NCBI GenBank assembly: GCA_001899685.1 | Contig: MKWG01000028.1 | Coordinates: 54,718-118,717, forward strand | Length of the DNA: 64,000 nucleotides | Direction: 5' to 3' | Source: Sphingobacteriales bacterium 44-15 | Lineage (GTDB): Bacteria > Bacteroidota > Bacteroidia > Chitinophagales > Chitinophagaceae | In this document: in pieces, positions 31,575-49,779 of the stretch | Numbering within the stretch: position 1 is the first letter of the stretch | Layout of the letters: each line of letters begins with the position of its first letter | Notes under the pieces: model-generated | Database searches by the model: none | The model's input: the letters and a program-made list of their open reading frames with translations, nothing else | Told to the model about the DNA's origin: nothing | Program-made: the position numbers and the translations under genes

Positions 31575-31582
31575 TAAACTGA

Positions 31583-31931: not shown

Positions 31932-32213
31932 GTCCATAAGGAGCAGTATTTGAATAATTGGCACATACAGATTCGAAAGTTGGGAGAACTTCAATAAACA
32001 TCTGCGCTTACTACATTAATCATTTCGGAGATTTGCATTAAATTTCCAGAAGTAAGCAAACGTTGTAATCTCATAAAACGAGTATAAAATACGAGACATT
32101 ATTTTGGGCGGAACTTCAATGACCGCGCATCCTTTTTTGGATATCGAGGATTACAGATTCTTACGAAGTAGATACGCTGGTGAGGTTATATAATAGATGT
32201 TTATTGGTAAAGT

Positions 32214-32375
32214 TTAATAGCTTGGTATATCTTCATTCTCATATGTTCCATCGCTTTGTAAATCCTTAAGCAAATGTTTAATATCAATACCACCACGATA
32301 GGCCACTATCAGCATTACCATGATAAACCAGGAAATGGTTAAAAAACAAAGTATACTCCAAAACAGATACGTCAT
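32214..32375 (-). CDS. 53-aa single-TM peptide translationally coupled to the SSF symporter (possible symporter accessory subunit)
   Basis: Its ATG (32375-32373) overlaps the symporter TGA (32374-32372). Sequence MTYLFWSILCFLTISWFIMVMLIVAYRGG... It is below the ORF-track cutoff. Confidence 0.45.
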   Translation of the reverse strand: MTYLFWSILCFLTISWFIMVMLIVAYRGGIDIKHLLKDLQSDGTYENEDIPSY

Positions 32376-33844
32376 GATAAATCGGGTTTTATATTATTTT
32401 TAATCAGCGATCCTGCCACCATGGCAACTGCAGCAACCAGGTAGGTTGCTACACCTGTTTTATAGGGCCCTATTTTCTGGGTTAGCGGTTGCGTGATTTC
32501 AATTTGCTGCATCACTAAAAAACTTATGGGTATAAAAGCCCCCGCAATAATAGCAGCAAACGCACCCCAACTATTTGCCCTGTTCCAATAACAGGCAGCG
32601 ATTAATATGACACTCATACTGGAGAGATAGATTGTGCCGGTAACTTGCAAATACACCCACAGATCACCTTTTAAGGGATACCACAACCCGTAAAGTAAAA
32701 GAAATATACCAATGCATGCGATCAGTAAACGGTTCCAGAAAAGCCCCTTTACCTCCGACCATCTTCCTTTGTGAATGGGCTTCATAATATCATTATATAT
32801 AATTGATGACCATGCCAGCATATAGGAGGAATTAGTGGACATGTCTGCCGCCAGCATGGAAGCCACTAAAATACCGATCAGCCCCACGGGGATAACCGCA
32901 GATAGAAAATTTGGCATTGCAAAAATACTTTTGTCATGAAAATCTGATCCAAAATAATGCAATGCCCCAATACCCAAAATTGCGGGCAGAACAAAGCGGG
33001 CAAGGAAAAAAGGGCTTGTATTCATGTAAATGCGTTTGCCGGTTCCTGAGTCCTTGGAAGCCAGCACCCGGGAGATCATTGTTTGCCATGTAAGTACCGC
33101 AGCAAAAGCCAGAAATACATCCAACAGAATCCTGTCTACTCCGTAATGAGGGTTTATAAAAGGATTGAAAGCGCCATCCCCGATCTGTTGTCCGGCTGTT
33201 TCCAGTAAAGCAGCCCACCCGAATTTAAAGATGATCATCAGAATGACAATGATCAGCCCCGCACTCATCACAATAAACTGGATATAATCGGTAATAAGGA
33301 TTGACAACATTCCGCCAAGGATGGTATATAGAGCGATAGCCGCAAGAATAACTGTCATTACGACTTCAAGGTAAGAAGGATCAAAGCCACAAACAATTGA
33401 AAGAAAATCGCCTGCCTGGCGAAGAAATACACCCATATTCAGCAGCCCTCCTAAAACCATGACCAATCCACATGCCCAGCGAACCTGCTTGCCAAATTTC
33501 TTTTCAAAGAACTCAGGGAGCGTAATAACTTTCTGTTCTCTAAGCGGCCTGATACAAAAGCCGGTATACCCAACTACAAACATAGCCAGCGCTAAGGCTA
33601 TCCCGGGAGTAACGCCGGCAAAACCGTATTTATAACCCAATTCCGCATTTCCCATACAGGTGGCAATACCAAATTCGGAAGCAGCCAGAGAAGCGATCCC
33701 TAAATATAAATTCACGTTACGTCCCGCCAGGAGGAAGTCATCTACTTTATGAACATAACGCCTGATCAGAAGCCCGCAGGTTATTGTACCCCCGAGATAT
33801 ATTAAAACAATAGGACCGTCAATAAGCCAGTTAAAATTTGACAT
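32372..33844 (-). CDS. sodium:solute symporter family (SSF) transporter
   Basis: 490 aa with ~13 TM segments and an SSF-like N-terminal FLLAGRNVN motif. Confidence 0.9.
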   Translation of the reverse strand: MSNFNWLIDGPIVLIYLGGTITCGLLIRRYVHKVDDFLLAGRNVNLYLGIASLAASEFGIATCMGNAELGYKYGFAGVTPGIALALAMFVVGYTGFCIRPLREQKVITLPEFFEKKFGKQVRWACGLVMVLGGLLNMGVFLRQAGDFLSIVCGFDPSYLEVVMTVILAAIALYTILGGMLSILITDYIQFIVMSAGLIIVILMIIFKFGWAALLETAGQQIGDGAFNPFINPHYGVDRILLDVFLAFAAVLTWQTMISRVLASKDSGTGKRIYMNTSPFFLARFVLPAILGIGALHYFGSDFHDKSIFAMPNFLSAVIPVGLIGILVASMLAADMSTNSSYMLAWSSIIYNDIMKPIHKGRWSEVKGLFWNRLLIACIGIFLLLYGLWYPLKGDLWVYLQVTGTIYLSSMSVILIAACYWNRANSWGAFAAIIAGAFIPISFLVMQQIEITQPLTQKIGPYKTGVATYLVAAVAMVAGSLIKNNIKPDLS

Positions 33845-33857
33845 AAAGATTTTTTCA

Positions 33858-34616
33858 CTATTTCAATTCGTAAAGGTCTTTCACAACTTGCTGCAATGCA
33901 GTAATTACCGCATCCGTAATCTGTTGCCCTTTTGGGGCAGAGGCGGCAGTGGGATCACCAAAGACACCCGTAACAGTCATAGCCCTCATATTTCGAAAGT
34001 AAGATGCCCCGGATCCTCTAAGCATATCTGATTCGGCCCAGGGAAAAGTAGGCCGGTTTGTTTTGGGAAAAATAAGTTTTTGAATAACCAGATCCGGTGC
34101 AATATGAAGCATAAGAGAAGTCTCAAACTCACCGGCATGCCCTACACCCCCTGGTCCTGTTTCCGTAATCTCATACAGGCGTTTTATAGCGACACGCCAC
34201 CATGTGGTCATCACAAGATGCACCTGCGGGTATTCATGCCCCAGTTGCTCCATTAATACCTGCCCGATCGCCTGGTTACCACCGTGGCTATTTAAAAGGA
34301 TAATTTTGTGAAACCCATGTTGAATAACCGAGCGGATAATATCGCCAACCTGGTTACGGAAACTCTCTTGTGAAATCGACAGCGTACCCGAAAATCCCAT
34401 ATGATGGTCTGAACAACCCACCGCAACCGCGGGAAGCACCAGCAATTGGCTGGGCATCTCCTCATGAAGCTTGCGTGAAAAAAACTCGCCTATCAAACGA
34501 TCCGTTGCAAGTGGCAGATGCGGCCCATGTTGTTCTGTAGCGGCAACAACCAGCAGCACCGGTATCCCCCTGTCGAGTCCGTTTATTTGTTCAGATGTTA
34601 ACTGGTCCCAGATCAT
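33858..34616 (-). CDS. creatininase-family amidohydrolase
   Basis: ATEQHGPHLPLATD, NSHGGN and HAGEFETS metal-binding motifs. Confidence 0.85.
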   Translation of the reverse strand: MIWDQLTSEQINGLDRGIPVLLVVAATEQHGPHLPLATDRLIGEFFSRKLHEEMPSQLLVLPAVAVGCSDHHMGFSGTLSISQESFRNQVGDIIRSVIQHGFHKIILLNSHGGNQAIGQVLMEQLGHEYPQVHLVMTTWWRVAIKRLYEITETGPGGVGHAGEFETSLMLHIAPDLVIQKLIFPKTNRPTFPWAESDMLRGSGASYFRNMRAMTVTGVFGDPTAASAPKGQQITDAVITALQQVVKDLYELK

Positions 34617-35488
34617 GATTTAACCCCCCACATTTCAATTTCAATTAATAAATTCATCAGTAGTCCTGCTTTGAGTGCAGTTCTTACCGGAAGCCTATCT
34701 GTAAAATATGCCCGGTATATTTCATTAAACCGGGGCCAGTCTTCCAGGTTTCTTAAATAAACATTCACTTTGAATACATCATTAAATCCACATCCGGCGC
34801 TTTTCAATTGCCTGAGACAATTATCCATTGTGTAAGCAGCCTGTTCTTCAATAGTATCTCCCACAACGTTGCCATCCGGATCAATGGCTGCCTGGCCCGA
34901 CAACACCACCAGTCTTCCCCGGTCAACTTCCAGCACGGGCGAATAAGGACCTGCAGTTCGGTGCTGGGTAGCATTCTGCGGAAATTTTATCAGTTCTCCG
35001 GGTTGATGAGCGTCTGCCAAAAAATGAGGCATATACCCGGTAAACCCGGTAATCTTCCATGCCTGGTTCACCTTTCGGCAATAGTATAGTGTCTGCCAGC
35101 TCATAGGCAGTCTGCCCCCGTCAGCTTTTAAAATATTGCCGAAAAATTTCTTGTGTACCACAGCAACATTTTCTTTTATCTCTATATCACGCAGCACGGT
35201 CACCCGGAACATTGCTGCCTCAATATCTTCTCCCCAGGCTAATGTTTTAAACTCCCCGGCTTGCCGCAGCCATTCATCCCGGTAAGCTTTTAAAGTAGGA
35301 AAGCCAAGCCTCCATGCATCCGGGTTCCCGATACGGCCGGCATCTATTCCAATAAAGCCATCTTCTATAAAATCACCCGCCACTATAGACCAGTCTCCCT
35401 GCAAAAAAGCCATAATGTCGCGGTATACCAGCATATCCCATATTGCATGCCGGTCGCTGTCCCGTTCTGAAAAAGGATTTGTACTCAA
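34613..35488 (-). CDS. fusion protein: NTF2/SnoaL-like N-terminal domain plus a RidA/YjgF/L-PSP C-terminal domain
   Basis: C-terminal AGPYSPVLEV...LSGQAAIDPDG...VNVYL...R.A.....LL.NLLIEIE is RidA-like. The N-terminal ~150 aa have an NTF2-like pattern. It starts with a TTG overlapping the upstream stop, so the start is uncertain. Confidence 0.7.
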   Translation of the reverse strand: MSTNPFSERDSDRHAIWDMLVYRDIMAFLQGDWSIVAGDFIEDGFIGIDAGRIGNPDAWRLGFPTLKAYRDEWLRQAGEFKTLAWGEDIEAAMFRVTVLRDIEIKENVAVVHKKFFGNILKADGGRLPMSWQTLYYCRKVNQAWKITGFTGYMPHFLADAHQPGELIKFPQNATQHRTAGPYSPVLEVDRGRLVVLSGQAAIDPDGNVVGDTIEEQAAYTMDNCLRQLKSAGCGFNDVFKVNVYLRNLEDWPRFNEIYRAYFTDRLPVRTALKAGLLMNLLIEIEMWGVKS

Positions 35489-36615
35489 TGGAATTCTTTT
35501 TGACTTATCTGGTAATGTTTTAAAGCATATTCATCAGGCTCTACTCCCAAGCCAGGGCCTTCAGGCAGTCTCACGTATGGAGGTTCGAACTGCAGGGAAG
35601 TTTTCAGCAGATCATGCTCCCTGATCATTCTTCCGAAAATATCGCTTGGCCAAGTACAGGAAGCGGCAGCGGCCGAGCTATGTACATACATAGCCTCCAG
35701 GATGCCCAGGTCTATTTCTGATCCGTGCCAACACGGCATTTCAGAAGCTGAAGCAATATGATCCAGCCGTTGAAAGTCAGCCAGCCCGCAGTTAAAGTTA
35801 AAGCCGTCAACCGCTCCCAACTGAATGGATTGGATTGCATCTTTTATCCGCTGACCGTGCAGCACATAAGGGAGCGATACATGCAGCACGATCGGCACCT
35901 GGCTGAAGGCACGCAGAGAAGCGTATTCGTTAAGCTGCCACCTCGGAATCGGTTCTTCCACGCATAAAAGGTTCCCGATCTTATTTAAATCCGCTATCCT
36001 TTTACGTGCTTCAAAAGCATGGGCCCATCTTTCATTAGGGTCGAGGATGACCTTCATGGAAGGGGCGGCATTAGCAATAACCTCGCACCATTTTACCACA
36101 TCATCTTCCAGGTCGCACTTAAACTTGATACAATCGTATCCCTGCGCTTCAAAAGCGCGAACCATTTCACCAATCTCTTCAACCAGCCTGTGACCGGACC
36201 ATGCACCAACTTTTACCTTTTCTCTGAGCGCCCCACCTAAAAGGTCTGACACGCGCATGTTGTGCGCCCTGGCATAAGCATCCCAGACAGCACATTCAAA
36301 ACCATCGTATTCTCTGCAAAAATTAAAGGGAAGCTTTTGCAGGATCAATGCATTGAGATTCTTGCCCAGCAACACTCTTATTATATCTTCCACGATCCGC
36401 CAGTCATGATTCCGGTATAGCTCACCCCATCCCACAACACCAGTGCTAAGTTCCATACGGATAATCAGTTTGGGGAGCTGGTCAAACTGTACGCTCCATG
36501 CCGATTGAGCACCGACCGGCAGCTTGTGCAACGGCTTGTTGAGGGATGCGCTGTTAATAGTACCCGGCCGGCCGGGAACAATTACTTCATAACAGGTAAT
36601 ACTGGAAATTTTCAT
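35485..36615 (-). CDS. enolase-superfamily enzyme (mandelate racemase/muconate lactonizing family)
   Basis: IKFKCD (KxK), ILDPNERW (Asp ligand), VEEP (Glu ligand) and a later Asp/His region. Confidence 0.85.
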   Translation of the reverse strand: MKISSITCYEVIVPGRPGTINSASLNKPLHKLPVGAQSAWSVQFDQLPKLIIRMELSTGVVGWGELYRNHDWRIVEDIIRVLLGKNLNALILQKLPFNFCREYDGFECAVWDAYARAHNMRVSDLLGGALREKVKVGAWSGHRLVEEIGEMVRAFEAQGYDCIKFKCDLEDDVVKWCEVIANAAPSMKVILDPNERWAHAFEARKRIADLNKIGNLLCVEEPIPRWQLNEYASLRAFSQVPIVLHVSLPYVLHGQRIKDAIQSIQLGAVDGFNFNCGLADFQRLDHIASASEMPCWHGSEIDLGILEAMYVHSSAAAASCTWPSDIFGRMIREHDLLKTSLQFEPPYVRLPEGPGLGVEPDEYALKHYQISQKEFH

Positions 36616-36661
36616 TCACCAAATATGTTTTTTGATCTTTTAATCTTCCCGTTCACTGTGA

Positions 36662-37444
36662 CTATGCCGGCATAGCGCCTGTCAACTTGATCGTATCTCC
36701 GTTGTCAATATAGATAGTCTGACCGGTAACGGAGCGACTTAAACCAGACAATAAAAAAGCAGCAACATAACCACAATCCAAAGGGTCAACTGCACGGGGA
36801 ATTACCTGCTCATGTTCAATATAATGCTTAATCCATCCATGGGGATCTTCTGTCCATGTGCCTATCAATGCATAATTTTGCTCGGCATGCACATACCCGG
36901 GCGCGATCGCATTCACCCGGATATCATATTTTCCCAACTCCACTGCCATCCCTCTTGTTAATCCTTCGACTGCGGCCTTCGCACCTGCATATATACTATA
37001 TCTCGCCATTGTAGCCCGGGCGTGGACGGAAGATACATTTACAATATTGCCCTTTGTTTTATTTTCCAATAGTTGACGTACAAAATATTTGGACATCATC
37101 CATACAGCCTTTATGTCAACATGATACAAATTATCAAACTCCTCCTCGCTTGCCTCGTGTGCTGGTTTACTCAGACCTATACCAGCATTGTTGACCAATC
37201 CATGAATAACACCTACATCCCTGCTCAGGTGATCAAACATGGCTTTAACCTCATCGGGCTTAGTGATATCAGCGGGTGCGGGTATAGCATCGGGATACTG
37301 TTTCATGGCGGCACTAAGCTTCTCTTCGGTAAGCTCATTAATCAGTAAACGTGCACCAAATTGAGAGAGAGCCTTGCAAATACCGCTTCCCACACCATTG
37401 CCTCCTCCTCCTGTAATTAAAATATTAGTTCCTTTCAAATCCAT
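36662..37444 (-). CDS. SDR-family oxidoreductase
   Basis: TGGGGNGVG cofactor loop, NNAG, catalytic S...YAGAKAA (YxxxK). Confidence 0.9.
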   Translation of the reverse strand: MDLKGTNILITGGGGNGVGSGICKALSQFGARLLINELTEEKLSAAMKQYPDAIPAPADITKPDEVKAMFDHLSRDVGVIHGLVNNAGIGLSKPAHEASEEEFDNLYHVDIKAVWMMSKYFVRQLLENKTKGNIVNVSSVHARATMARYSIYAGAKAAVEGLTRGMAVELGKYDIRVNAIAPGYVHAEQNYALIGTWTEDPHGWIKHYIEHEQVIPRAVDPLDCGYVAAFLLSGLSRSVTGQTIYIDNGDTIKLTGAMPA

Positions 37445-37463
37445 ATCTAAATAATTAGTAACA

Positions 37464-38144
37464 TCACATTACTGCATATCTGGCAAAGGCTTCGCAGGCG
37501 CTCATTCCTTCTTCTAACTTCATCTTTACAGTTCTCTCCGTCCTCACCTTTTCAAAAGCTTTCTCCAACACTTCCTGTTCAACGCTTTTGGGGATCACGC
37601 ACACTCCATCCTGATCTCCAAATATAATATCACCAGGTTCCACCAAAACCTGCCCGCAACGAATGGGAATTCTATAATCTACCACCTTTCCCCTTGGTTC
37701 CTGATCCTGTGCATAACTACCATAGGAAAAGCAGGGGAAATCCAATGCCAGTATGCCGGGCGTGTCTCTTGAATAACCGTCTACCACCGCGCCTGCAGCT
37801 CCCAATAGTTTAGCCCGGGTAGCCATTAATTCGCCCCATAAAGCATAGGTAGGAGAAGCACCCGAACAGATGTATACTTCATTCTTTTTTAAATCATCCA
37901 GCGCTTCAAGCATCAAACCAAAAGGTTTTTTCAATAAGTTGCCGTCACTGATCTGATCTATATCAGCTTCTAAAACTGTCATTGCCCTTCCCGCCATAAC
38001 CATTTTATCATTCAAAGGATGAAGGGTCGGTGGTAAAAACTGGTGCAGGTACCCCAATTTATCTAAAATATCTCCAATAACCGCAGTAAATAACTCGTTA
38101 CGGATCAGCTTAAATAATTCATCATCATTTTCCCATTCTTTCAT
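37464..38144 (-). CDS. RraA-family protein (RraA-like class II pyruvate/oxaloacetate aldolase family)
   Basis: WGELMATRAKLLGAAGAVVDGYSRD and GDIIFGDQDGVCVIP motifs. ATG at 38144; the longer ORF starts with TTG at 38156. Confidence 0.8.
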   Translation of the reverse strand: MKEWENDDELFKLIRNELFTAVIGDILDKLGYLHQFLPPTLHPLNDKMVMAGRAMTVLEADIDQISDGNLLKKPFGLMLEALDDLKKNEVYICSGASPTYALWGELMATRAKLLGAAGAVVDGYSRDTPGILALDFPCFSYGSYAQDQEPRGKVVDYRIPIRCGQVLVEPGDIIFGDQDGVCVIPKSVEQEVLEKAFEKVRTERTVKMKLEEGMSACEAFARYAVM

Positions 38145-38239
38145 AAGATTATTCAATTGTTTTATACATTTTAAAATGTGTTAATTAGCATGTTGTCCTT
38201 ATCTGCAAATAATCTCCCTAATAGAACTGCAGCATATAT

Positions 38240-39826: not shown

Positions 39827-39882
39827 TTTAATTATCAGTATTCGCTTTATTTGTTTAGACCAATTATTTTCTTTCTGGCAAC

Positions 39883-40920: not shown

Positions 40921-40938
40921 ATCTGTATTATTTTCTCT

Positions 40939-42291: not shown

Positions 42292-42335
42292 ATTTAACCA
42301 ATTTAATTGCACGCCAGGTAATCATTACCTGACCA

Positions 42336-43673: not shown

Positions 43674-43732
43674 GATTATAGTATTTATTTTCAAACCACT
43701 ATAAAGGTGCATGCAAAAGACGTAATATCGAC

Positions 43733-45484
43733 TTACCAGCCGGGGTTTTGCTCCAACTGTTTATTTAAGGTTAATTCTTCTGTTGAAACAGGGCTTAAAT
43801 AATCTCTGTCCGGCTTAAAGCCGTAACCACCGGGCAACTGTGATTTAAGGGGATCAAAATAGCCGTCTGTTAATGTAAAATCAGAAGCATGTAAATCAGG
43901 ATAGTCTGTGGTGTTAAATACAGCTCCCAATGGACGTTTTCCTACAATAACTTTTTCAGCCGCAGCCCATCTGGCCAGATCGTTCCACCTGAATCCCTCC
44001 AAAACAAGCTCCACGCGACGTTCACGCCTTATTTCATTAAGCACAGGTGTCAGATCAGGAAATTGCCAATGAGGATCTTCCTCAATTGCAGCTATATTCA
44101 AATGAGGCATAGACACCCGGTTGCGAAGCTGGTTGATGCTTATATCAATATCCTCCTGGGTGATCGTGCCTAATTCAGCTTTGGCTTCTGCATAATTCAA
44201 TAAGGCTTCTGCATACCTGAATACAATCCAGCCGGTATAACCAACGGGTAATGTTTCAAGAGAGGCATGATGAACAGGATCAAAATTCAGGAATTTATTC
44301 ATCTGATAGCCCGTAGGGCACCGCGTATGAGCAGGATCTGCGACCGTGGGCCTTTGAAAATACGTTGTGTCCCCCCCAACAGCCTGAAGCGGAAAACCGG
44401 GAGTAAAGATCGTTTGTGTAAACCTCGGATCACGGTTGGTCGCTGTTTTCTTCAGGGTGCCATCTCCCTCATACAGTGGATTTTCAGCACCATTACCTAA
44501 ATAAATAGGTCTTCCGTCTTTACACAGGTAAGCGTCAACAAAAGACTTTGTCAATCCCATGCCGCCGGATTTTCCCGTGGCAATCTGAAACTGAAAAGAA
44601 TTCCCTTTATTTAAACTCAGGTCATATTTTTCCCATAACAGTACTTCGGAATTGGTAGAATAATCCACCCGGCTAAAGAGGTTAAAATAATCCCATCCGG
44701 GATCTCCGGTGGAATAAATAGTGTACAATCCTGATTCTATCACTGCTTTAGCGGATTGAGCCGCCAGATCAAGATATTTTTGCGATTGGGGATTGTCTAC
44801 TTTAAATTCATCCGCCACATGATACTTCTCCCAGGTACCTTCATATAAGCAAACTCTTGACTTAAACAATAACGCAATTTCCCTGCTTAGCCTTGTAGCG
44901 GCTTCCTGCTTACCACTGGGCAGGAGCTCAATCGCTTCATCCAGATCTGCAATAACAGAATCAACAACCTGATTGCGGGGAGTGCGAGGCATATACAGCT
45001 CTTCCGAATTAGTATTCAATGGAGCACTAATATAAGGTACGTCTCCATATTCCTTCACCAGGCTAAAATAGAAGAATGCCCGGAAAAAATGCGCCTCTCC
45101 CACATAACTTTTATAGCTGTTGAAAGGATCTGCCACTTTATCATAATTTGCCATAAAAACATTCAGGGCACGGATATTGGCATAACTCCATCCTCCTGTG
45201 GCAGGCACTACCCTTGCACCCTGCAGCCTGGGATTAGCAAGCACCAACCCGACATCATCGCTCTGTGCGTCGGCAGCAAAATCTCCATTTAGCTGATCAC
45301 CCATAGGCTGGTCAAATGCTGCAGGATAAAATTGATTGACATACAATTTGAGGTCATTGCCTGTTTTCCAGAAATCTACAGTTGTGATCTGATCAAGCGG
45401 GTACTTGTTCAAAAAATCCTTTTTGCACCCTATTGCCACTGAAAGCAAAAGCAACAAGCTGTATTTATATATATTTATTCTCAT
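43733..45484 (-). CDS. susD: RagB/SusD-family nutrient-binding lipoprotein
   Basis: Lipoprotein signal (LLSVAIGC) and the SusD C-terminal motif (VLEGFRWNDLARW). Confidence 0.9.
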   Translation of the reverse strand: MRINIYKYSLLLLLSVAIGCKKDFLNKYPLDQITTVDFWKTGNDLKLYVNQFYPAAFDQPMGDQLNGDFAADAQSDDVGLVLANPRLQGARVVPATGGWSYANIRALNVFMANYDKVADPFNSYKSYVGEAHFFRAFFYFSLVKEYGDVPYISAPLNTNSEELYMPRTPRNQVVDSVIADLDEAIELLPSGKQEAATRLSREIALLFKSRVCLYEGTWEKYHVADEFKVDNPQSQKYLDLAAQSAKAVIESGLYTIYSTGDPGWDYFNLFSRVDYSTNSEVLLWEKYDLSLNKGNSFQFQIATGKSGGMGLTKSFVDAYLCKDGRPIYLGNGAENPLYEGDGTLKKTATNRDPRFTQTIFTPGFPLQAVGGDTTYFQRPTVADPAHTRCPTGYQMNKFLNFDPVHHASLETLPVGYTGWIVFRYAEALLNYAEAKAELGTITQEDIDISINQLRNRVSMPHLNIAAIEEDPHWQFPDLTPVLNEIRRERRVELVLEGFRWNDLARWAAAEKVIVGKRPLGAVFNTTDYPDLHASDFTLTDGYFDPLKSQLPGGYGFKPDRDYLSPVSTEELTLNKQLEQNPGW

Positions 45485-45493
45485 GGTTTCAAA

Positions 45494-48400
45494 TTATTTA
45501 AAAGTTACATTAATGCCTACCGAATATATCCTGCGTAAAAAGTGACCTTTGGCAACACCCCATCCGGCATTAAAAAGCGCTTCAGGGTCAATCAGTTTCG
45601 TCAAAGACGTAAGAGTAAGCAGGTTTTCCCCGGATACGTATATCCTTGCATTACCTACGGCTGCCCTGCGTGTCAGCCCGGAAGGAACAGTATAGCCAAT
45701 AGTTAAGCTTTTTAACCGGAAATAAGAAGCGTTTTGCATATACCGCGTTTGTATCTCCTTATTTTTATAATCTTCAGTGGAGAGATAGGGTTTCGGGTAA
45801 TACGACTGGGTATTAGGTCCAAGTATATTGGTCTCATCTTCAGGGCGCCAATAGTCAAGCGTGGTGTTATTTCCTTTATAGAATGCATTCATCCCCCACC
45901 ATTGCTGTCCGTTGAACCCATAAAACGCATTGTCATTCGTAGTGGCGAATGCATAATCTCTTTTAAGGATGCCCTGCCAGAACATACTGAAATCTATATT
46001 TTTCCAGTTCAATTCTGTGTATAATCCTACCGGGAACCGGGAACTATTGTTGCCAATGATCGTGTAATCACCCGGATCATTAGCTGTCCCACTTCCGCGT
46101 GTGATCTTTTTATCCCCGTTAAGATCTTTGTATTGAATGTCTCCCGCACCCCAGGTAGGATAAAATAAAGTCTGATCAGGACCTTTATCTGCATCTTCTT
46201 TCGACTGATAAATCCCCACAGTTCTCAGCCCCCATATTTCACCGAGCGTTTGCCCTTCATACCACGTAGATAAAGATTTTGTTGGGTTATTGTATTTTAA
46301 TACGGTAGTTACATTATCTGATATTGTCGCTCTTACACTATAGGTGATATTGGCACCGATATGATCGCGCCAGGTCACGGCCAGATCAAAACCTCTTGTT
46401 CTAATTGTAGCATTATTCGTTTGAGGAACAGAAGTGCCAAGTGTGAGCGGCAGAGCTTCGGCAGGGCCAAACATATCAGATGTTATCCTGGTATAGTAAT
46501 CAAAAGATGTACTTAACCTGCTATCCAGAAAACCTGCATCAAAGCCAATGTTTTTTGTTGTAATGGTTTCCCATGTGAGGTTAGCGCTGGTTAACCCCGG
46601 CGCCTGAACAAAGTCGGGTCTTACCGTACCTATAATCCAGTTCAGGTTGGTACCCATCCCGATAGTAGGCAGGTAGAGATAATTCGGCACCTGCTGATTT
46701 CCGAGCGAGCCCCAGGAGCCACGAATCTTAAAGGTATTGACATAGGGCTTCAATGTCTTCCAGAACGACTCCTGCGATACGTTGTAGCCCACAGAAACAG
46801 ATGGGAACAGCCCCCATCTGGAATCGCTGGCAAACCTGGAACTTCCATCATACCTTCCATTTAATTCTAACAGGTATTTTTCCTTGAAGTTATAGCGAAA
46901 TCTTGCAAAGAAGCTCTCTGTGGCCCAGTGGGACTTATTATCACTCAGATTAATTTTGCCGGTGGATGTACTGATAGACGGCACGCTGGATGTCAGCATA
47001 TCATTCTTACTTCCGGTGATACCGTTGAGAATATCTGACTGGCTTTCAAAGCCACCCATCACATAAAAATAATGCTTGCCTAATGTAAGGTTATAGGATG
47101 AAGTGATATTGAACAGCGTATTATTATCAGCAGCAAAATTGGTTGTATACGAGCTCGTAGGATACGCATGCACATATTTATTTCCCCGGGGATCAGTGCC
47201 ATATACTGTCATTTTGTTATCATCATACCTAGTGTTACTATTGGTATAATTATAGGAAATAACTGTTTCCCAGTTTTTTACCGGTTCAAGTATAGCTCCC
47301 AAAGACAAAATGTATTGTGAGCCGTATACATCAATTTTCCCCCCGTCAATAAGTGAAGGAATATCCGATATATCCGAAAATTCTCCATTTGGAAGTATGC
47401 GTGGCCTAAAGGAATTGATCCGGTAAAAGTCATGATAAAAAGTATTCCTGTCATATCCTTCCTTGGTATTAAAATAACGGTTCCTTTCGTTAATATATTT
47501 ACTGTTAAACTTAAAGGTCATCCAGTTTGTTGCCTTAGCAGTGATGTTAGCTGTTACATTATACCTTTTATAGAATTGTCCCCCGTATCTCAATTCATCC
47601 GGCTGATCCCATAGTCCTGCCGACACATAATAGGAAGTTTTGTCGCCACCCCCGCTGATATCAACATTATGCTTCTGCCTCATGGTTAAATCTCTGTAAA
47701 AGATATACATCCAATCATTATTGCCATTCCCTGCTATACTCCATATCCCATTACCCACCCAGTCACTGCTATCAGGCATCAGCCAGGTCTCTTCTTTGAT
47801 TTCACCCGCCATATATTGCTTAATACGATCATAATTCTCCTGGGTGAAATTGGGCCCTAACCCTGCATTGATGCTTGCCTGGTCAAAAGCGGTTATATAC
47901 TTCAGTGAATTTTCCATATGCGGGCGACCGATAGGGCTCGAAAAAGAAATATTATTAGAATATCCAATCTGCATTTTCTTTTTTCCGGCACCGGTATTAG
48001 TGGTAATCAAAATAACACCAAAGGCGCCCTTGGATCCGTAGATCGCAGCCGCAGCCGCATCTTTCAATATCGTAACAGACTGAATGTCGCTGGGGTTAAC
48101 CGCATTGATATCCATGGGGACACCGTCTACCAGCACATAAGGAGCGTAATCGCCAGTCAGCGTCCCGATCCCCCTGATATTAATTGCAGGCTTGCCTCCC
48201 GGCTCACTTGCCACTGTAGATCCCGGCGTGATATTAAGATTGGGAGAAACTCCCTGCAGCATTTCCGTAACATTTGCATTTCCTCTCGATTCAATTTGTT
48301 TTGTATTAACAACATCAACGGCTGCTGTCAGGTTCTCCTTTTTTTGCGTTCCATAACCTACGACCACTACCTGGCTCAATTCTGATGAAGAAATATTTAA

Positions 48401-48745
48401 AACAACATTAACCCGGCTCCTCCCGTTCACTGGGATTTCCTGTGTGATATAACCAACATAAGAAAAAATAAGCGTACCTGTTCCCGCAGCATCTAATTCG
48501 TAGTATCCGTTGGAGTTGGTAGTCGTCACAAGCGTGGTACCTTTCGCCTGTACCGTAACCCCGGCAAGTAAGTCGCCAGAAGCATTGGTAACCGAGCCTG
48601 AAATATGGGACCGGGGTGTCTGGCTCTGCAGTATAAGCCCGGGGAACCCAGTATTGCCTATGGCTATTGATGTATAAGTCATCATCAGTAAAATAGCTGT
48701 GACAAATACAAAATGCCGGCAAAATGTGTGGGAGCATATTCTCAT
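45494..48745 (-). CDS. susC: SusC/RagA TonB-linked outer-membrane transporter (no STN domain)
   Basis: CarbopepD_reg (ISGSVTNASGDLLAGVTVQAKG), plug (VVVVGYGTQKKEN, SVTILKDAAAAAIYG), barrel ending in F. I prefer the ATG at 48745; the ORF is open to 48886. Confidence 0.9.
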   Translation of the reverse strand: MRICSHTFCRHFVFVTAILLMMTYTSIAIGNTGFPGLILQSQTPRSHISGSVTNASGDLLAGVTVQAKGTTLVTTTNSNGYYELDAAGTGTLIFSYVGYITQEIPVNGRSRVNVVLNISSSELSQVVVVGYGTQKKENLTAAVDVVNTKQIESRGNANVTEMLQGVSPNLNITPGSTVASEPGGKPAINIRGIGTLTGDYAPYVLVDGVPMDINAVNPSDIQSVTILKDAAAAAIYGSKGAFGVILITTNTGAGKKKMQIGYSNNISFSSPIGRPHMENSLKYITAFDQASINAGLGPNFTQENYDRIKQYMAGEIKEETWLMPDSSDWVGNGIWSIAGNGNNDWMYIFYRDLTMRQKHNVDISGGGDKTSYYVSAGLWDQPDELRYGGQFYKRYNVTANITAKATNWMTFKFNSKYINERNRYFNTKEGYDRNTFYHDFYRINSFRPRILPNGEFSDISDIPSLIDGGKIDVYGSQYILSLGAILEPVKNWETVISYNYTNSNTRYDDNKMTVYGTDPRGNKYVHAYPTSSYTTNFAADNNTLFNITSSYNLTLGKHYFYVMGGFESQSDILNGITGSKNDMLTSSVPSISTSTGKINLSDNKSHWATESFFARFRYNFKEKYLLELNGRYDGSSRFASDSRWGLFPSVSVGYNVSQESFWKTLKPYVNTFKIRGSWGSLGNQQVPNYLYLPTIGMGTNLNWIIGTVRPDFVQAPGLTSANLTWETITTKNIGFDAGFLDSRLSTSFDYYTRITSDMFGPAEALPLTLGTSVPQTNNATIRTRGFDLAVTWRDHIGANITYSVRATISDNVTTVLKYNNPTKSLSTWYEGQTLGEIWGLRTVGIYQSKEDADKGPDQTLFYPTWGAGDIQYKDLNGDKKITRGSGTANDPGDYTIIGNNSSRFPVGLYTELNWKNIDFSMFWQGILKRDYAFATTNDNAFYGFNGQQWWGMNAFYKGNNTTLDYWRPEDETNILGPNTQSYYPKPYLSTEDYKNKEIQTRYMQNASYFRLKSLTIGYTVPSGLTRRAAVGNARIYVSGENLLTLTSLTKLIDPEALFNAGWGVAKGHFLRRIYSVGINVTFK

Positions 48746-48906
48746 AACATTAAAGTTGAATTGGTGAATGAAAATCTTATTCCATGTAATGATGAGTGCA
48801 AGAATACAACTTGTAAGAAATGATAACACAATATTTTTTAACAACAACTTCATATATTTTAACATTAATGTATATTTATTCTTCAATTTGTGCTAAATAT
48901 ATTTTG

Positions 48907-49779
48907 ATGAAGCCATTATTTATAGATGTAGGGATAAATGAAAATCAATTGATTTATTTAAAAGAAATCAACACTCCTTACCTGGATACGCCATTTCACT
49001 TTCATCCCAATTGTGAGTTGGTATATATTGAAGATGGGTACGGGAAAAAGGTAGTAGGAGATAACGTAAGTACTTTTAATGAGGAAACTTTGATATTAAT
49101 GGGACCAGATACACCTCATATACTAACAAACGATGACATTTACTATAAAGGGAATAAAAACCTGAGATCAAAAGCCATCGTGATTTATTTCTCTCCCTCT
49201 TTACTCAAACTTTTTTTACCATCTAAGGACCTACAACCCTTAAACACATTAATAAACAAATCCTTGAGGGGACTTGAAATCGTAGGTAAGACAAGGAATA
49301 TCATAAGGAATAAAATGTCGGGCATTATGGGAAAGGAAGGGCTTTCCCGACTAATCATTTTTTTTGAAATCTTAGAAATTTTAGCACATTCCAACGAGAT
49401 TAAATATCTGTCCAGTAAAAATTTTGTAAACACTTTTAATACAAAAGATACCGACAGGATAAATAGAGTCTATCAATTCTTAATGCAAAATTTTAAACAG
49501 GAAATCAGCCTCGACGAAGTAGCCGATATAGCCCATTTGGCGCCAACAGCATTTTGCAGGTTTTTCAAGCAACGTACAGGTAAGACCTTCTCAAATTTTT
49601 TGAACGAGTTGCGAGTGAAGCATGCCGGTGAACTCTTAAATAACCCGGAAATGACTATTACTCAAATATCTTATGAGTGTGGATATAACAATCCGACTAA
49701 TTTCAATAAATTTTTCAAAGAGATTACCGGACTTACACCTACAGCTTACAGGAAAAAAATATTAGGATCTTCTGAATAA
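48907..49779 (+). CDS. AraC-family transcriptional regulator (cupin-like sensor plus HTH), divergent from the PUL
   Basis: N-terminal cupin-like FHFHPNCELVYIE. C-terminal AraC HTH (ISLDEVADIAHLAPTAFCRFFKQRTGKTF...ITQISYECGYNNPTNFNKFFKEITGLTP). Confidence 0.9.
   Translation: MKPLFIDVGINENQLIYLKEINTPYLDTPFHFHPNCELVYIEDGYGKKVVGDNVSTFNEETLILMGPDTPHILTNDDIYYKGNKNLRSKAIVIYFSPSLLKLFLPSKDLQPLNTLINKSLRGLEIVGKTRNIIRNKMSGIMGKEGLSRLIIFFEILEILAHSNEIKYLSSKNFVNTFNTKDTDRINRVYQFLMQNFKQEISLDEVADIAHLAPTAFCRFFKQRTGKTFSNFLNELRVKHAGELLNNPEMTITQISYECGYNNPTNFNKFFKEITGLTPTAYRKKILGSSE

Follow-up and report, generated by a model that had tools for sequence, protein, structure and literature searches.

A conserved AraC-linked operon of a soil-type Bacteroidota bacterium and a candidate oxidative route for N-acetylhexosamine degradation

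Organization of the operon

Thirteen co-directional genes of a soil-type Bacteroidota bacterium occupy the minus strand between positions 32214 and 48745 of the window, the whole stretch of 64,000 nucleotides that was analyzed (Table 1). ORF listing and direct reading of the sequence gave distances, from susC to the gene for the 53-aa peptide, of 9, 59, 44, 18, 56, 83, 19, 46, -4, -4, 13, and -4 nt, the largest gap being 83 nt and the three 4-nt overlaps reading ATGA (34613 to 34616 and 32372 to 32375) or TTGA (35485 to 35488). An AraC-family gene is divergent from the operon, with ~160 nt between the likely starts. The sequence-only reading had described this layout, the absence of NagK/NagA/NagB-type genes from the locus, and Tat signals on both Gfo/Idh/MocA proteins; each was confirmed, the twin-arginine motifs being SRRKF in Gfo457 and DRRMF in Gfo345. 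Its family calls were all reproduced by Pfam/NCBIfam, except that the label "NTF2" corresponds to an AlphaFold2-predicted topology only, and its listing of the genes departed from their order on the DNA, in which the GH20 gene is mid-operon and SSF lies at the 3' end.

Table 1. Genes of the operon and its divergent regulator, in window coordinates
Feature	Coordinates	Strand	Basis
AraC-family regulator	48820-49779; likely true start 48907	+	cupin/AraC_binding + HTH_18 (Pfam)
SusC-type TonB-dependent transporter	45494-48745	-	Plug, CarboxypepD_reg, beta-barrel domains
SusD-family lipoprotein	43733-45484	-	SusD_RagB 2e-47
DUF6807 ("PmoA-like") lipoprotein	42336-43712; probable start 43673	-	PF14100 7e-34
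Gfo457, Tat-signal Gfo/Idh/MocA oxidoreductase	40939-42291/42312	-	Pfam
Gfo345, Tat-signal short Gfo/Idh/MocA protein	39883-40920	-	Pfam, N-terminal Rossmann domain only
Secreted GH20 beta-N-acetylhexosaminidase	38240-39826	-	Glyco_hydro_20 1e-104
RraA-like protein	37464-38156	-	PF03737 1.6e-34
Classical SDR	36662-37444	-	Pfam; TGxxxGxG, S139, Y152xxxK156
ENOL, enolase-superfamily enzyme	35485-36615	-	MR_MLE_C/N
N-domain-RidA fusion	34613-35488	-	PF01042, residues 177-286
CREAT, creatininase-family metal amidohydrolase	33858-34616	-	PF02633 6e-64, full length
Sodium:solute symporter (SSS/SSF), inner membrane	32372-33844	-	PF00474 1e-36
53-aa hydrophobic peptide	32214-32375	-	ORF; overlaps SSF stop codon (ATGA)

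A search with ENOL as the bait returned 49 ENOL-containing loci, to which the counts below refer. The arrangement of the operon was found again in two loci (L002 and L027; protein identity, 79 to 91%); because of this recurrence, and that of the core gene order across phyla, it is not a product of chance. A regulator of the AraC type likewise sits beside the cytoplasmic module or the Gfo cassette in L004, L005, L014, L017, L020, L024, and L050 to L057.

Envelope and uptake proteins

The susC start was taken from the sequence-only reading and a signal-like N terminus. The GH20 enzyme retains its catalytic D-E pair (GGDE, residues 335 to 338) and matched PDB entries 6q63 (1e-93) and 6ezr (1e-85); it is accessory, being present in 4 of the 49 loci. 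For the DUF6807 protein, the later start is favored because a 445-aa database protein is 100% identical. This protein has an LSAC lipobox and an N-terminal beta domain of roughly 190 aa followed by the DUF6807 domain. The PDB gave no sequence relative, and the AF2 model (pTM 0.83) matched, weakly, only galactose-mutarotase-like supersandwiches. Gfo457, the large subunit of the cassette, scored 182 bits against the NCBIfam BT_2158_fam model, far under the cut-off of 750; its PDB matches (8tdf, 7.5e-33; 8tdh, 7.7e-30) suggest that it resembles glycoside 3-dehydrogenases, its nearest characterized relatives. Gfo345, for which PDB matches were weak, adjoins Gfo457 in the window and in L002, L004, L017, L027, L050, L051, L052, and L054, and is absent from L053.

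The DUF6807-Gfo-Gfo cassette is separable from the cytoplasmic module. It is present in 6 of the 49 loci, other PULs carry it without the module, and L001 has GH20 and GH109 genes between susD and the module, at the place that the cassette occupies in the window. Downstream of the module, SSF orthologues occur in L001, L002, L008, L009, L021, L039, and L056. The 53-aa peptide, which had no Pfam match, is a probable small subunit of this symporter; copies in L001 and L002 are 76 to 82% identical, and Flagellimonas L056 has a 42-aa ORF at the matching position.

The cytoplasmic module and its neighbors

The 49 loci span five or more phyla, the groups being Bacteroidota, Planctomycetota, Verrucomicrobiota, and Alpha- and Gammaproteobacteria. 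A RidA domain directly follows ENOL in 33 loci (25 fused, 8 plain), CREAT adjoins ENOL/RidA in 35, and 28 have the SDR gene immediately upstream of ENOL. Of the 49 loci scanned, 17 hold an RraA-like gene; L055 to L057 carry one too. The order of the five genes is constant wherever they are present, and ENOL-RidA-CREAT is a conserved syntenic core.

ENOL is ~70% identical across Bacteroidota, and its best PDB matches are MLE/NAAAR enzymes (2e-18). K164/K166, D192, E220, H245, N275, and H297 are invariant in 46 homologues. This catalytic set is atypical, since His245 replaces the third metal ligand Asp and Asn275 the beta-6 Lys, and the chemistry of ENOL cannot be read off any characterized member of the superfamily; we regard it as a candidate (N-acetyl)hexosaminate dehydratase. 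The RidA domain, which matched RidA structures in Foldseek (2e-10), has an invariant, carboxylate-binding Arg269 (PVR). The 160-aa N-domain of the fusion has no relatives in Pfam or, by profile search of PDB sequences, in the PDB; its sequences make up no more than 244 clusters among 1.84 billion proteins, in which it occurs both fused and on its own. The AlphaFold2 secondary structure (three helices and a curved sheet) fits an orphan alpha+beta domain of NTF2-like cone topology. CREAT, related to MftE, creatininase, and IolN in NCBIfam (each under cut-off) and to PDB 3lub (1.7e-15), is a candidate N-acetyl-hexosaminate deacetylase or, alternatively, a lactonase. The best NCBIfam match of the SDR, a candidate HexNAc 1-dehydrogenase, is a "glucose 1-dehydrogenase" subfamily (1.1e-48, under its cut-off). 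The RraA-like protein aligns with the HMG/CHA aldolase 3noj with the R130-D131 pair kept, and is a candidate for a class II pyruvate aldolase acting on KDG/KDGal.

Genes neighboring the core point to amino sugars as the substrate: GH20 and GH109 genes flank it in some genomes, and NagP-like MFS (364 bits), NagX-like acetyltransferase, and DgaE-family glucosaminate-6-P ammonia-lyase genes occur beside it, as do GH88 genes and sulfatases with an SGSH_C domain. An acid intermediate is supported by D-galactonate-transporter-type MFS genes adjoining SDR-less Planctomycete versions of the module, and acetate release by an acetyl-CoA synthetase gene directly upstream of ENOL in L006.

Genes downstream of the core alternate. 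In Litorimonas L036, a divergent SDR gene accompanies ENOL-RidA-CREAT-DGOK (2-keto-3-deoxygalactonokinase)-KDPG/KDPGal aldolase-RbsD/FucU mutarotase. A PfkB kinase is encoded in Thalassotalea L055 and Kordiimonas L033, a second SDR and a FAH-family hydrolase in Niabella L014, and the RraA-like protein in some loci. These are all known 2-keto-3-deoxy-hexonate routes, indicating that the core occupies the slot of galactonate dehydratase in a De Ley-Doudoroff operon. In Aestuariivivens L057, one AraC gene is common to the module and an SDR-lactonase-UxuA operon; UxuA converts mannonate to KDG. We read the core as probably converting HexNAc or HexNAc-onate to acetate, NH3, and KDG/KDGal.

A proposed route and its alternatives

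Our main reading, with a probability of roughly 0.55, is that the locus is one AraC-controlled operon of two separable modules, the back end of which degrades HexNAc via an aldonic acid. From family-level assignments, SusC/SusD would bring in a HexNAc-containing oligosaccharide or glycoside, from which the periplasmic GH20 would cut off beta-linked HexNAc; the lipoprotein/Tat trio (DUF6807, Gfo457, and Gfo345) may perform NAD-dependent oxidation on the glycan, and the SSF symporter with the 53-aa peptide would move the monomer into the cytoplasm. There, the five-protein module would degrade N-acetylhexosamine (GalNAc and/or GlcNAc). The SDR would oxidize C1 to yield a lactone or N-acetylhexosaminate, a step omitted if the acid itself is imported. 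CREAT would remove acetate and ENOL would take the C2 proton and eliminate the 3-OH to give a 2-amino-enoate, possibly in either order; hydrolysis of the tautomeric imine by the RidA domain would then afford NH3 and 2-keto-3-deoxy-gluconate or -galactonate, which the RraA-like class II aldolase would split into pyruvate and glyceraldehyde. Conserved residues back enzyme competence (ENOL K164-x-K166, D192, E220, and H297; the RidA Arg; the RraA R-D and GH20 D-E pairs). Judged from sequence, the widely conserved five-enzyme set most likely uses N-acetyl-amino sugars via sugar acids and not the textbook phosphorylated route, in an amino-sugar version of the De Ley-Doudoroff/nonphosphorylative Entner-Doudoroff scheme.

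CREAT could instead be a lactonase acting in a pathway with a nonacetylated substrate. The SDR could act on the keto-deoxy acid instead of HexNAc C1, and no lactonase is evident within the window. A mutarotase accompanies this conserved cytoplasmic enzyme in L036, and the SDR is a stronger candidate for the C1 dehydrogenase than the periplasmic Gfo enzymes. Use of RraA as a KDG aldolase is not secure, because Thalassotalea carries both RraA and a PfkB kinase. Several observations weigh against the proposed pathway as a whole: ENOL is nearest to muconate cycloisomerases and N-acylamino-acid racemases, not to acid-sugar dehydratases; L010, L011, and L013 also have a DgaE-like PLP lyase, which looks redundant beside an ENOL dehydratase; the GH20 and the cassette are infrequent; and the module of Flagellimonas L056 occurs without any glycan genes.

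The sequence-only reading had proposed an oxidative, nonphosphorylative route through an amino-sugar acid, with de-N-acylation, ENOL plus RidA, and release of pyruvate. Synteny, neighbors, and alternative back-ends support that part. In sequence, ENOL, with its MLE-subgroup matches and unusual catalytic set, differs from canonical acid-sugar dehydratases, the GH20 is accessory, and the periplasmic step assumed to yield a lactone or acid is doubtful given the glycoside 3-dehydrogenase relatives of Gfo457 and the separable cassette.

No described pathway matching this module was found in the literature searched. The closest described system is the gammaproteobacterial ong pathway, which pairs a TonB receptor and an SSS transporter with a periplasmic GH20, a deacetylase, a deaminase, and a RidA that is essential, and converts GlcNAc1A to KDG (PMC9537276); the likeness to oxidized-chitooligosaccharide catabolism drawn in the sequence-only reading was apt. 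Both systems follow one logic of a TonB receptor, a GH20, an SSS-type transporter, and RidA, whereas the ong deacetylase and deaminase are nonhomologous to the enzymes of this locus, and the proposed pathway would be a nonhomologous analogue of ong. Pointers to a galacto substrate are DGOK, GH109, and DgoT-like MFS; those to a gluco substrate are NagP, PfkB, and UxuA.

Organization of the locus and its surroundings

Inspection of the ORFs of the locus and family searches of their products recovered the 13 co-directional genes, the divergent AraC-type gene, and the ATGA, ATGA, and TTGA overlaps described in the sequence-only reading, each where it had been placed. Successive intergenic gaps, from susC to the gene of the small peptide, are 9, 59, 44, 18, 56, 83, 19, 46, -4, -4, 13, and -4 nt. 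By its gene content, the locus is a PUL, with a transporter gene encoding Plug, beta-barrel, and CarboxypepD_reg domains and a SusD_RagB gene located 9 nt away. The sole classical CAZyme of this PUL is the GH20, which has a signal-like N terminus and the catalytic D-E pair (GGDE). The family labels proposed from the sequence were all reproduced except NTF2, for which neither a Pfam nor a PDB sequence match was found. Family searches of the gene products likewise bore out the absence of any NagK-, NagA-, or NagB-type protein from the locus, and the predicted export signals were seen on motif inspection: a lipobox in the DUF6807 protein and, in the two Gfo/Idh/MocA proteins, twin-arginine motifs (S-R-R-K-F-V-K in Gfo457 and D-R-R-M-F-I-R in Gfo345) followed by a hydrophobic N-terminal stretch.

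Features of the locus, its surroundings, and related loci (positions in the window unless a related locus is named)
Feature	Position	Strand	Content or basis
Locus under study	32214-49779		13 minus-strand ORFs and 1 divergent plus-strand ORF
Regulator		+	AraC-type, divergent (Pfam)
SusC		-	SusC-type TonB-dependent transporter, first of the minus-strand genes (Pfam)
SusD		-	second gene (Pfam)
DUF6807		-	third gene (Pfam)
Gfo457		-	457-aa Gfo/Idh/MocA protein, fourth gene (Pfam)
Gfo345		-	345-aa Gfo/Idh/MocA protein, fifth gene (Pfam)
GH20		-	sixth gene (Pfam)
RraA-like	37464-38156	-	seventh gene (Pfam)
SDR		-	eighth gene (Pfam)
ENOL	35485-36615	-	enolase-superfamily protein, MR_MLE_N/C, ninth gene (Pfam)
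RidA protein		-	tenth gene (Pfam)
CREAT	33858-34616	-	creatininase-family protein, eleventh gene (Pfam)
SSF		-	SSS-family symporter, twelfth gene (Pfam)
Small peptide	32214-32375	-	53-aa hydrophobic peptide, gene overlaps the SSF stop codon
Spacer	30700-32210		about 1.5 kb, from the small peptide gene to a FecR gene
Flanking locus	24454-30696	-	FecR/ECF-controlled SusC(STN)/SusD pair
Upstream neighbor	49919-58007	-	separate ECF-sigma/FecR-controlled SusC/SusD locus
Enzyme of the upstream neighbor	49919-51490		type I phosphodiesterase/nucleotide-pyrophosphatase family
SusC/SusD pair of L001	1456-5400		immediately before GH20-GH109-RraA-SDR-ENOL
Gene set of L010	816-4317		RidA-like (161 aa)-DgaE-family PLP ammonia-lyase-YjgF-like (188 aa)-NagX-like acetyltransferase
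Region of L053	10001-20000		DUF6807-Gfo458-GH20 unit on metagenomic contig ctg13042l
Operon of L057	1-6268		GH38-MFS-(136 aa)-SDR-lactonase-UxuA

A scan of the operon for RNA elements gave no Rfam match, and promoter- and terminator-like sites were no commoner within it than in shuffled sequence. These scans carry no weight for or against transcription as a single operon. Both flanks are occupied by separate SusC/D loci under ECF-sigma/FecR control and, since these loci are distinct, the boundaries originally drawn for the finding were right. The phosphodiesterase/nucleotide-pyrophosphatase-family protein is the sole enzyme found within positions 49919-58007 of the upstream neighbor. On the other side, the SusC/SusD pair clusters with that of L001, one of the related loci compared with the window (L001 to L057). 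Two uptake systems of the window may therefore feed one cytoplasmic module. The spacer contains only short ORFs (111 aa or less), the longest of which had no Pfam match, and the stretch had no Rfam match; it may represent decayed genes or an untranslated spacer. The small peptide is kept behind the orthologous SSF in L001 and L002 (76 to 82% identity), and in Flagellimonas (L056) its position is occupied by a 42-aa ORF. The peptide probably represents a small subunit, so far undescribed, of this clade of SSS transporters.

Distribution and genomic context of the cytoplasmic module

Scanning species-representative genomes with ENOL as the bait, followed by clustering of all ORFs in the regions retrieved, gave 49 loci from Bacteroidota, Planctomycetota, Verrucomicrobiota, and Alpha- and Gammaproteobacteria, one Solirubrobacterales MAG and one Solibacteraceae MAG being among the sources. 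ENOL itself was recovered as a clustered ORF in 46 of these loci. CREAT was adjacent in 35, a RidA domain immediately followed ENOL in 33 (fused to the N-domain described below in 25 and plain in 8), and the SDR was located immediately upstream in 28. The RraA-like gene was found in 17 of the 49 loci (the window and 16 others) and, additionally, in L055 to L057. Other genes of the window operon were rarer: the orthologous SSF, the DUF6807-Gfo457-Gfo345 trio, and the GH20 were present in 7, 6, and 4 loci, respectively. The order of the module genes was invariable across the scanned loci, and those lacking CREAT and RidA were mostly short contigs or members of a divergent Verrucomicrobiales ENOL clade (46 to 50% identical). 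The ENOL/RidA/CREAT set recurs among the 49 loci with its order kept. In the Chitinophagaceae, Cyclobacteriaceae, Saprospiraceae, Flavobacteriaceae, and Balneolaceae, ENOL has homologues of about 70% identity. By its nearest relatives, the window belongs to a Terrimonas/Agriterribacter-like member of the Chitinophagaceae. A search with ENOL retrieved 1,024 clusters at an E value of ≤1e-20, some of which may be other enolase-superfamily proteins; the 120 listed matches were full length and 66 to 95% identical. The search with the RidA fusion retrieved 939 clusters (E ≤ 1e-10), some of them possibly plain RidA, the 120 listed matches being 56 to 90% identical and nearly all about 290 aa long.

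The module, composed of the SDR, ENOL, RidA, CREAT, and RraA-like genes, forms a continuous operon with susCD and GH20 in three loci (the window, L002, and L003), and in L027 it is continuous with susCD. It is also present in the Flagellimonas operon (L056), which contains no glycan genes. The trio is joined to the module in the window, L002, L004, L005, L017, and L027. In L001, a GH20 and a GH109 gene occupy the stretch from susD to the module, the place of the DUF6807-Gfo-Gfo cassette in the window; true GH109 genes were also found in L009 and L029. Module-less versions of the cassette occur in Arenibacter latericius (AraC-PhyH-SusC-SusD-DUF6807-Gfo-Gfo), in a Draconibacterium (DUF6807-Gfo with GH38, a GlcNAc-2-epimerase-family protein, a sulfatase, and a sugar MFS transporter), and in two metagenomic contigs (DUF6807-Gfo with GH20, SSF, and other genes). 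Since the cassette occurs without the module elsewhere, the window locus is composed of a periplasmic front-end cassette and a cytoplasmic back-end module.

Three lines of genomic context converge, namely, the neighbors of the module, signs that an intermediate is acidic and that acetate is released, and the genes that follow the module, which are the most informative. The neighbors related to amino sugars comprise GH20, GH109, NagP-like N-acetylglucosamine MFS transporters (364 bits), NagX-like transmembrane glucosamine N-acetyltransferases, and DgaE-family D-glucosaminate-6-phosphate ammonia-lyases. Genes for sulfatases whose C-domain is of the N-sulfoglucosamine-sulfohydrolase type lie beside the module in L010, L011, L013, and L018 and beside the Gfo cassette in L052, and a GH88 gene is located near the module in Microbulbifer. 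Planctomycete versions lacking the SDR are adjoined by MFS genes of the D-galactonate transporter type (DgoT-like), and an acetyl-CoA synthetase gene is located directly 5' of ENOL in L006. In Litorimonas (L036), ENOL, the RidA fusion, and CREAT are followed by a 2-keto-3-deoxygalactonokinase (DGOK; PF05035), a KDPG/KDPGal aldolase (PF01081), and an RbsD/FucU mutarotase, the SDR being divergent. A PfkB kinase accompanies the module in Thalassotalea (L055) and Kordiimonas (L033). In Niabella (L014), the module comes with a second SDR and an FAH-family hydrolase, a dehydrogenase/hydrolase ending as in non-phosphorylative deoxy-sugar pathways. In Aestuariivivens (L057), the module has its AraC gene in common with an operon containing GH38, MFS, SDR, lactonase, and UxuA genes.

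All of these endings (DGOK/aldolase, PfkB, SDR plus FAH, and RraA) are established means of disposing of a 2-keto-3-deoxy-hexonate, which places ENOL, RidA, and CREAT in the slot of galactonate dehydratase (DgoD) in a De Ley-Doudoroff operon. An acetamido or amino group at C2 of the substrate fits with the need of a dehydratase for imine deaminase and amidohydrolase partners. The DGOK, GH109, and DgoT-like genes point to galacto-configured sugars, and the NagP-like, PfkB, and UxuA genes point to gluco-configured ones; the mutarotase of L036 speaks for a free reducing sugar entering the route. We therefore favor an oxidative amino-sugar-acid route as the overall function of the module, with a probability of about 0.55, and place less confidence in the assignment of any single enzyme to a step. 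For the interpretation reached from sequence alone, the conserved context supports the oxidative core with its enolase-family, RidA, and RraA enzymes; periplasmic oxidation is doubtful, as is the central place that had been given to the GH20, found in 4 of 49 loci.

The periplasmic proteins

By its profile and PDB matches, Gfo457 is a distant but clear homologue of the glycoside 3-dehydrogenases of Bacteroides rather than their equivalog. It matched the NCBIfam model BT_2158_fam (NF058561) at 1e-53, with 182.5 bits for an equivalog cutoff of 750, and the PDB glycoside 3-dehydrogenases 8tdf and 8tdh at 1e-33 and 1e-30, respectively. Identification of Gfo457 as a GH109 alpha-GalNAc-ase was rejected, since it contains GFO_IDH_MocA_C2/C3 domains instead of Glyco_hydro_109_C and since its best relatives are BT2158-type dehydrogenases. 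The NCBIfam models of BT_2158 and BT_2159 have 487 and 350 positions, respectively; Gfo345 did not match the latter. For DUF6807, no relative was found among PDB sequences, and its structural model gave only weak matches to galactose-mutarotase-like (carbohydrate-binding) supersandwich folds (TM-score of ≤0.34), which ruled out the fold as a guide to function.

These relationships give close to even odds to an alternative that concerns only the front end, in which the trio would mediate non-hydrolytic glycoside cleavage of the BT2158/GH109 type rather than formation of a C1 lactone or acid. C3 of the HexNAc glycoside would be oxidized, the aglycone eliminated, and the product rehydrated and reduced to free HexNAc, which the cytoplasmic SDR would oxidize later. 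The best characterized relatives of Gfo457 argue for this chemistry, as does the association of a large Gfo protein, a Gfo protein of about 345 aa, and an AraC-type regulator, a combination resembling that of the BT2156-2160 operon of Bacteroides thetaiotaomicron. The cassette is found in module-less PULs beside GH38, GH20, sulfatase, and sugar transporter genes. In L001, its place between susD and the module is filled by GH20 and GH109, the latter an NAD-dependent alpha-GalNAc-ase of the Gfo fold. C1 oxidation would, in addition, already be covered by the cytoplasmic SDR, together with the mutarotase of L036. However, the BT_2158 score is far below the cutoff, Gfo345 leaves the BT_2159 model unmatched, the fold matches of DUF6807 are weak, and both a xylose-isomerase-type lyase and a DUF1080 hydratase are absent from the window. 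The Gfo/Idh/MocA family also contains periplasmic C1 dehydrogenases, such as glucose-fructose oxidoreductase, which is among the weaker matches of Gfo457. The portability of the cassette and the GH20/GH109 pair found at the corresponding position of L001 make oxidation-elimination about as likely as C1 oxidation. The periplasmic oxidation to a lactone or acid that had been proposed is thus doubtful, the nearest characterized relatives being 3-dehydrogenases and the cassette being portable.

Like the enzymes of the BT2156-BT2160 pathway and of GH109, to which it is homologous, Gfo457 belongs to the Gfo/Idh/MocA family; by its twin-arginine motif it would be exported to the periplasm, and it is encoded in a sugar locus of Bacteroidota. 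However, Gfo457 lacks the GH109 C-terminal domain, the window lacks the xylose-isomerase-like lyase, and the partners of Gfo457 differ, being DUF6807 and a short Gfo protein. In L053, the DUF6807-Gfo458-GH20 unit adjoins a corrinoid methyltransferase set (two or three URO-D-family genes together with genes for a Met_synt_B12-like and a B12-binding protein), which suggests demethylation of methylated sugars in the same PUL.

Candidate enzymes of the module and the route proposed

ENOL residues were mapped onto PDB alignments, and conservation was read in 46 homologues. The best PDB matches were chloromuconate cycloisomerase and N-acylamino-acid racemases (2e-18 to 1e-14). K164-x-K166 (beta-2), D192, and E220 are conserved, and D192 and E220 align with metal ligands 1 and 2 of the enolase superfamily, the third ligand position being occupied by an invariant His245 rather than by Asp, Glu, or Asn. 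An invariant Asn275 occupies the beta-6 position of the second catalytic Lys of MLE-type enzymes, which sets ENOL outside the MLE subgroup and indicates that it is not a two-Lys racemase. The invariant His297 aligns with the beta-7 position of mandelate-racemase-type dehydratases; in the alignment, the end of beta-6 lacks the Asp of the His/Asp dyad of the MR subgroup, and an invariant D270 lies five residues earlier. Scores against the NCBIfam models of MR-type dehydratases were far below the cutoffs (60.8 bits versus 311 for galactonate dehydratase). ENOL is compatible with a one-base/one-acid beta-elimination, yet it fits no characterized subgroup. Several identities were rejected: the N-succinyl/N-acyl amino-acid racemase or dipeptide epimerase to which the best PDB matches had pointed (the beta-6 Lys is an invariant Asn); an orthologue of galactonate, mannonate, gluconate, arabinonate, or talarate dehydratase or of cis-3-hydroxyproline dehydratase (NCBIfam scores far below the cutoffs); and a cycloisomerase of the 3,6-anhydrogalactonate type (no agar or carrageenan genes nearby, and tight coupling to RidA, pointing to an amine).

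The RidA protein (291 aa) has a RidA domain in its C-terminal 115 residues (PF01042, 2.7e-23) that matched RidA structures in Foldseek at 2e-10 with a target TM of 0.8. Arg269 of its P-V-R motif, invariant in 36 sequences, would by motif position be the substrate-carboxylate-binding Arg equivalent to R105 of E. coli. Of the NTF2-RidA fusion that had been described, the RidA half was confirmed, and the NTF2 label is compatible with the predicted topology. The N-domain (first 160 residues) had no Pfam match at E ≤ 0.01 and none to PDB sequences with a 20-sequence profile, and the Foldseek matches listed for the full model were all to the RidA half. In the AlphaFold2 model (pLDDT of about 94), three helices pack on a curved sheet of five to six strands, a topology compatible with an NTF2-like cone. 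The N-domain family is tiny (244 clusters among 1.84 billion representatives) and occurs fused or standalone (about 160 aa); lactonase or tautomerase would be guesses at its role.

CREAT matched PF02633 over residues 5 to 244 of 252 with 216 bits (cutoff of 31.3) and fell below the NCBIfam cutoffs for creatininase, MftE, and IolN, being the equivalog of none. The SDR has the classical Ser-Tyr-Lys set, its best NCBIfam profile is glucose 1-dehydrogenase (subthreshold), and an acidic residue after beta-2 suggests NAD+ as the cofactor. The RraA-like protein matched PF03737 with 120 bits. Its R130-D131 pair aligns with R123/D124 of the HMG/CHA aldolase 3NOJ, and E109 aligns with D102. The fold and Arg-Asp pair in common with HMG/CHA aldolases (LigK/ProA) would fit cleavage of a 4-hydroxy-2-keto acid to pyruvate. 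The match to 3NOJ (1.4e-12) covers the C-terminal two-thirds only, scores against the LigK model are below its cutoffs, and the predicted substrate is a sugar acid, whereas that of HMG/CHA aldolases is a product of aromatic ring cleavage. The closest PDB entries are 5ir2 ("cellulase") and 5x15 ("putative transferase"); we know of no established function for either. The nearest, 5ir2 (222 aa), bears a deposited name that looks at odds with the RraA/aldolase fold and could mislead annotation transfer.

At the level of protein families, the front end is predicted to consist of import by SusC/D, removal of beta-HexNAc by the GH20, and uptake of the monomer by SSF with the small peptide. For the cytoplasm, we infer a route in which the SDR would oxidize C1 of HexNAc, CREAT would remove acetate, and ENOL would eliminate water across C2-C3, the latter two steps being possibly in the reverse order. 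RidA would then hydrolyze the imine to NH3 and 2-keto-3-deoxy-gluconate (KDG) or -galactonate (KDGal), which the RraA-like protein would cleave to pyruvate and glyceraldehyde. No description of this module was found by term searches of the full-text literature, including the GapMind paper.

Among described systems, the nearest is the ong cluster found in Pseudoalteromonas prydzensis ACAM 620 (Jiang et al. 2022). It converts GlcNAc1A to KDG-6-P with TonB receptors, OngA (a periplasmic GH20), OngIT (an SSS transporter), OngB (a deacetylase of the D-aminoacylase type), OngC (a PLP deaminase), OngD (an essential RidA), and KdgK (PMC9537276). A TonB-dependent outer membrane importer, a periplasmic GH20, an SSS transporter, cytoplasmic de-N-acetylation, deaminating dehydration, RidA, and a 2-keto-3-deoxy-hexonate would be common to both, and the TonB receptor, GH20, SSS transporter, and RidA are encoded in one window operon, the likeness being at the family level. 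In contrast to OngB, of the amidohydrolase superfamily, and to the PLP-dependent OngC, the window candidates belong to the creatininase family and the enolase superfamily, and neither an amidohydrolase-superfamily nor a PLP-dependent protein was found among the 13 gene products. KdgK phosphorylates KDG in the ong pathway, whereas the window encodes an RraA-like aldolase and no kinase. The window also has the SDR, the orphan domain fused to RidA, SusC/D in place of plain TBDRs, an AraC-type regulator, and the trio.

The locus might be a strict counterpart of ong, in which LPMO-made C1-oxidized chitooligosaccharides would be the substrates, the GH20 would free GlcNAc1A in the role of OngA, and KDG would be formed from it by CREAT, ENOL, and RidA after uptake through SSF. 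The logic would correspond one to one, from TonB receptor, periplasmic GH20, and SSS transporter to deacetylase, deaminating enzyme, RidA, and KDG (PMC9537276). The window GH20 is similar to the chitooligosaccharide-active Nag2 (PDB match at 1e-85), and ong has been reported only in Gammaproteobacteria and one betaproteobacterium, so that other chitin degraders are left unexplained. This alternative is nonetheless unlikely, since the annotated ORFs of the window and annotated genes of the related loci include no chitinase, LPMO, or chitin-binding gene, the GH20 is accessory, the near-universal SDR and the L036 mutarotase imply a neutral reducing sugar as the input, and the presence of DGOK, GH109, and a DgoT-like transporter speaks for substrates of the galacto configuration.

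Even less probable is a non-acetylated substrate, free GalN or GlcN from chitosan or from N-sulfated or de-N-acetylated glycans, which the SDR would oxidize and ENOL plus RidA would deaminate as the hexosaminate, CREAT acting as a lactonase and no deacetylation taking place. A De Ley-Doudoroff operon normally needs a lactonase, for which the window has no other candidate; creatininase opens a cyclic amide, which is chemically near lactone opening; and the N-sulfoglucosamine-type sulfatases accompany both module and cassette. However, the products of GH20 and GH109 are N-acetylated, NagX-like acetyltransferases and NagP-like transporters imply import of the N-acetyl form, an acetyl-CoA synthetase gene adjoins ENOL in L006, and the characterized creatininase-family members matched by profile are amidohydrolases, a peptidase, and a C-C hydrolase. 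We know of no characterized member of this family that is a lactonase.

The least probable substrate is a non-carbohydrate one, an N-acyl- or beta-hydroxy-alpha-amino acid (D-amino-acid-like or hydroxyaspartate-like) or a cyclic amide, with incidental PUL linkage, ENOL as a racemase, epimerase, or cycloisomerase, CREAT as a lactam or amide hydrolase, and RraA as an oxaloacetate decarboxylase: the best ENOL matches, the creatinine, peptides, formamides, and diketo-inositol used by characterized creatininase-family members, the oxaloacetate decarboxylation also performed by HMG/CHA aldolases (named in the matches), and the glycan-free Flagellimonas operon would fit, but ENOL lacks the beta-6 Lys needed for two-base racemization, the module sits time after time in carbohydrate loci, in an unbroken operon with susCD in four of them (three with GH20), and DgoK/DgoA, PfkB, FucU-type mutarotase, and NagP- and DgoT-like transporter genes accompany it.

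The preferred oxidative amino-sugar-acid route also resembles the De Ley-Doudoroff scheme (galactose dehydrogenase, lactonase, DgoD, DgoK, and DgoA). Both would open with C1 oxidation by a dehydrogenase and form the 2-keto-3-deoxy acid with an enolase-superfamily enzyme, DgoT-like transporters accompany the Planctomycete versions, and DGOK and the KDPG-type aldolase follow in L036 exactly as in dgo operons, with the mutarotase as an extra. ENOL is, however, not a DgoD orthologue. Three proteins hold the DgoD slot, which implies the amino or acetamido group at C2, and the window has the RraA-like protein where dgo has a kinase and an aldolase. The locus is best classed, by analogy, as a widespread, non-homologous counterpart of the ong and De Ley-Doudoroff schemes. 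The canonical routes (NagK/NagA/NagB and AgaK/AgaA/AgaS) share the presumed input sugars and the need to shed acetate and ammonia, but their kinase, NagA-type amidohydrolase, and SIS/NagB-type deaminase are absent from the locus, and carbon is predicted to exit as pyruvate and a triose instead of fructose-6-P or tagatose-6-P.

Chitin, peptidoglycan, mucins, N-glycans, and glycosaminoglycans supply HexNAc sugars, which rank among the main currencies of carbon and nitrogen, and genome-based predictions of HexNAc use at present assume the NagK/NagA/NagB or Aga routes. A wider reading, tentative and with the odds against it, takes the module as a complete, undescribed, non-phosphorylative GalNAc/GlcNAc pathway and the trio as a new periplasmic NAD-dependent glycoside-processing machine. 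If this were true, the pathway would be used by Bacteroidota, Planctomycetota, Verrucomicrobiota, and marine Proteobacteria. ENOL would be the first amino-sugar-acid dehydratase of the enolase superfamily, with an obligatory enamine hand-over to RidA, which would gain a physiological, pathway-dedicated role. A creatininase-fold N-acetyl-hexosaminate deacetylase and an RraA-fold KDG/KDGal aldolase would be new enzyme functions; together with ENOL, they would extend the known chemistry of three intensively studied superfamilies (enolase, creatininase, and RraA). The trio would be able to stand in for GH109 in PULs, and functions would be assigned to the orphan N-domain and to DUF6807. A widespread oxidative route would alter the way in which HexNAc use is inferred for the PVC phyla and for Bacteroidota of soil, the sea, and possibly the gut. 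The pathway would also be a candidate answer for the consumption of oxidized chitin products or GalNAc by Bacteroidota, the ong pathway having been reported only from Gammaproteobacteria and one betaproteobacterium.

In the DgaE route, too, beta-elimination and deamination turn an amino-sugar acid into a keto-deoxy acid through an imine relevant to RidA, as proposed for the module; DgaE is PLP dependent and acts on a PTS-delivered 6-phosphate, whereas PLP enzymes, PTS, and kinases are absent from the window. DgaE-family genes lie beside the module in L010, L011, and L013 (Fulvivirgaceae/Cyclobacteriaceae), as part of the four-gene set found 5' of the module in these loci, so that a PLP-based amino-sugar-acid deamination set stands beside the enolase-based one in apparent redundancy. 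The L057 operon under the AraC gene common to it and the HexNAc-type module resembles a route from mannose to KDG that is oxidative and non-phosphorylative, and the common regulator hints at coordinated oxidative catabolism of N-glycan sugars.
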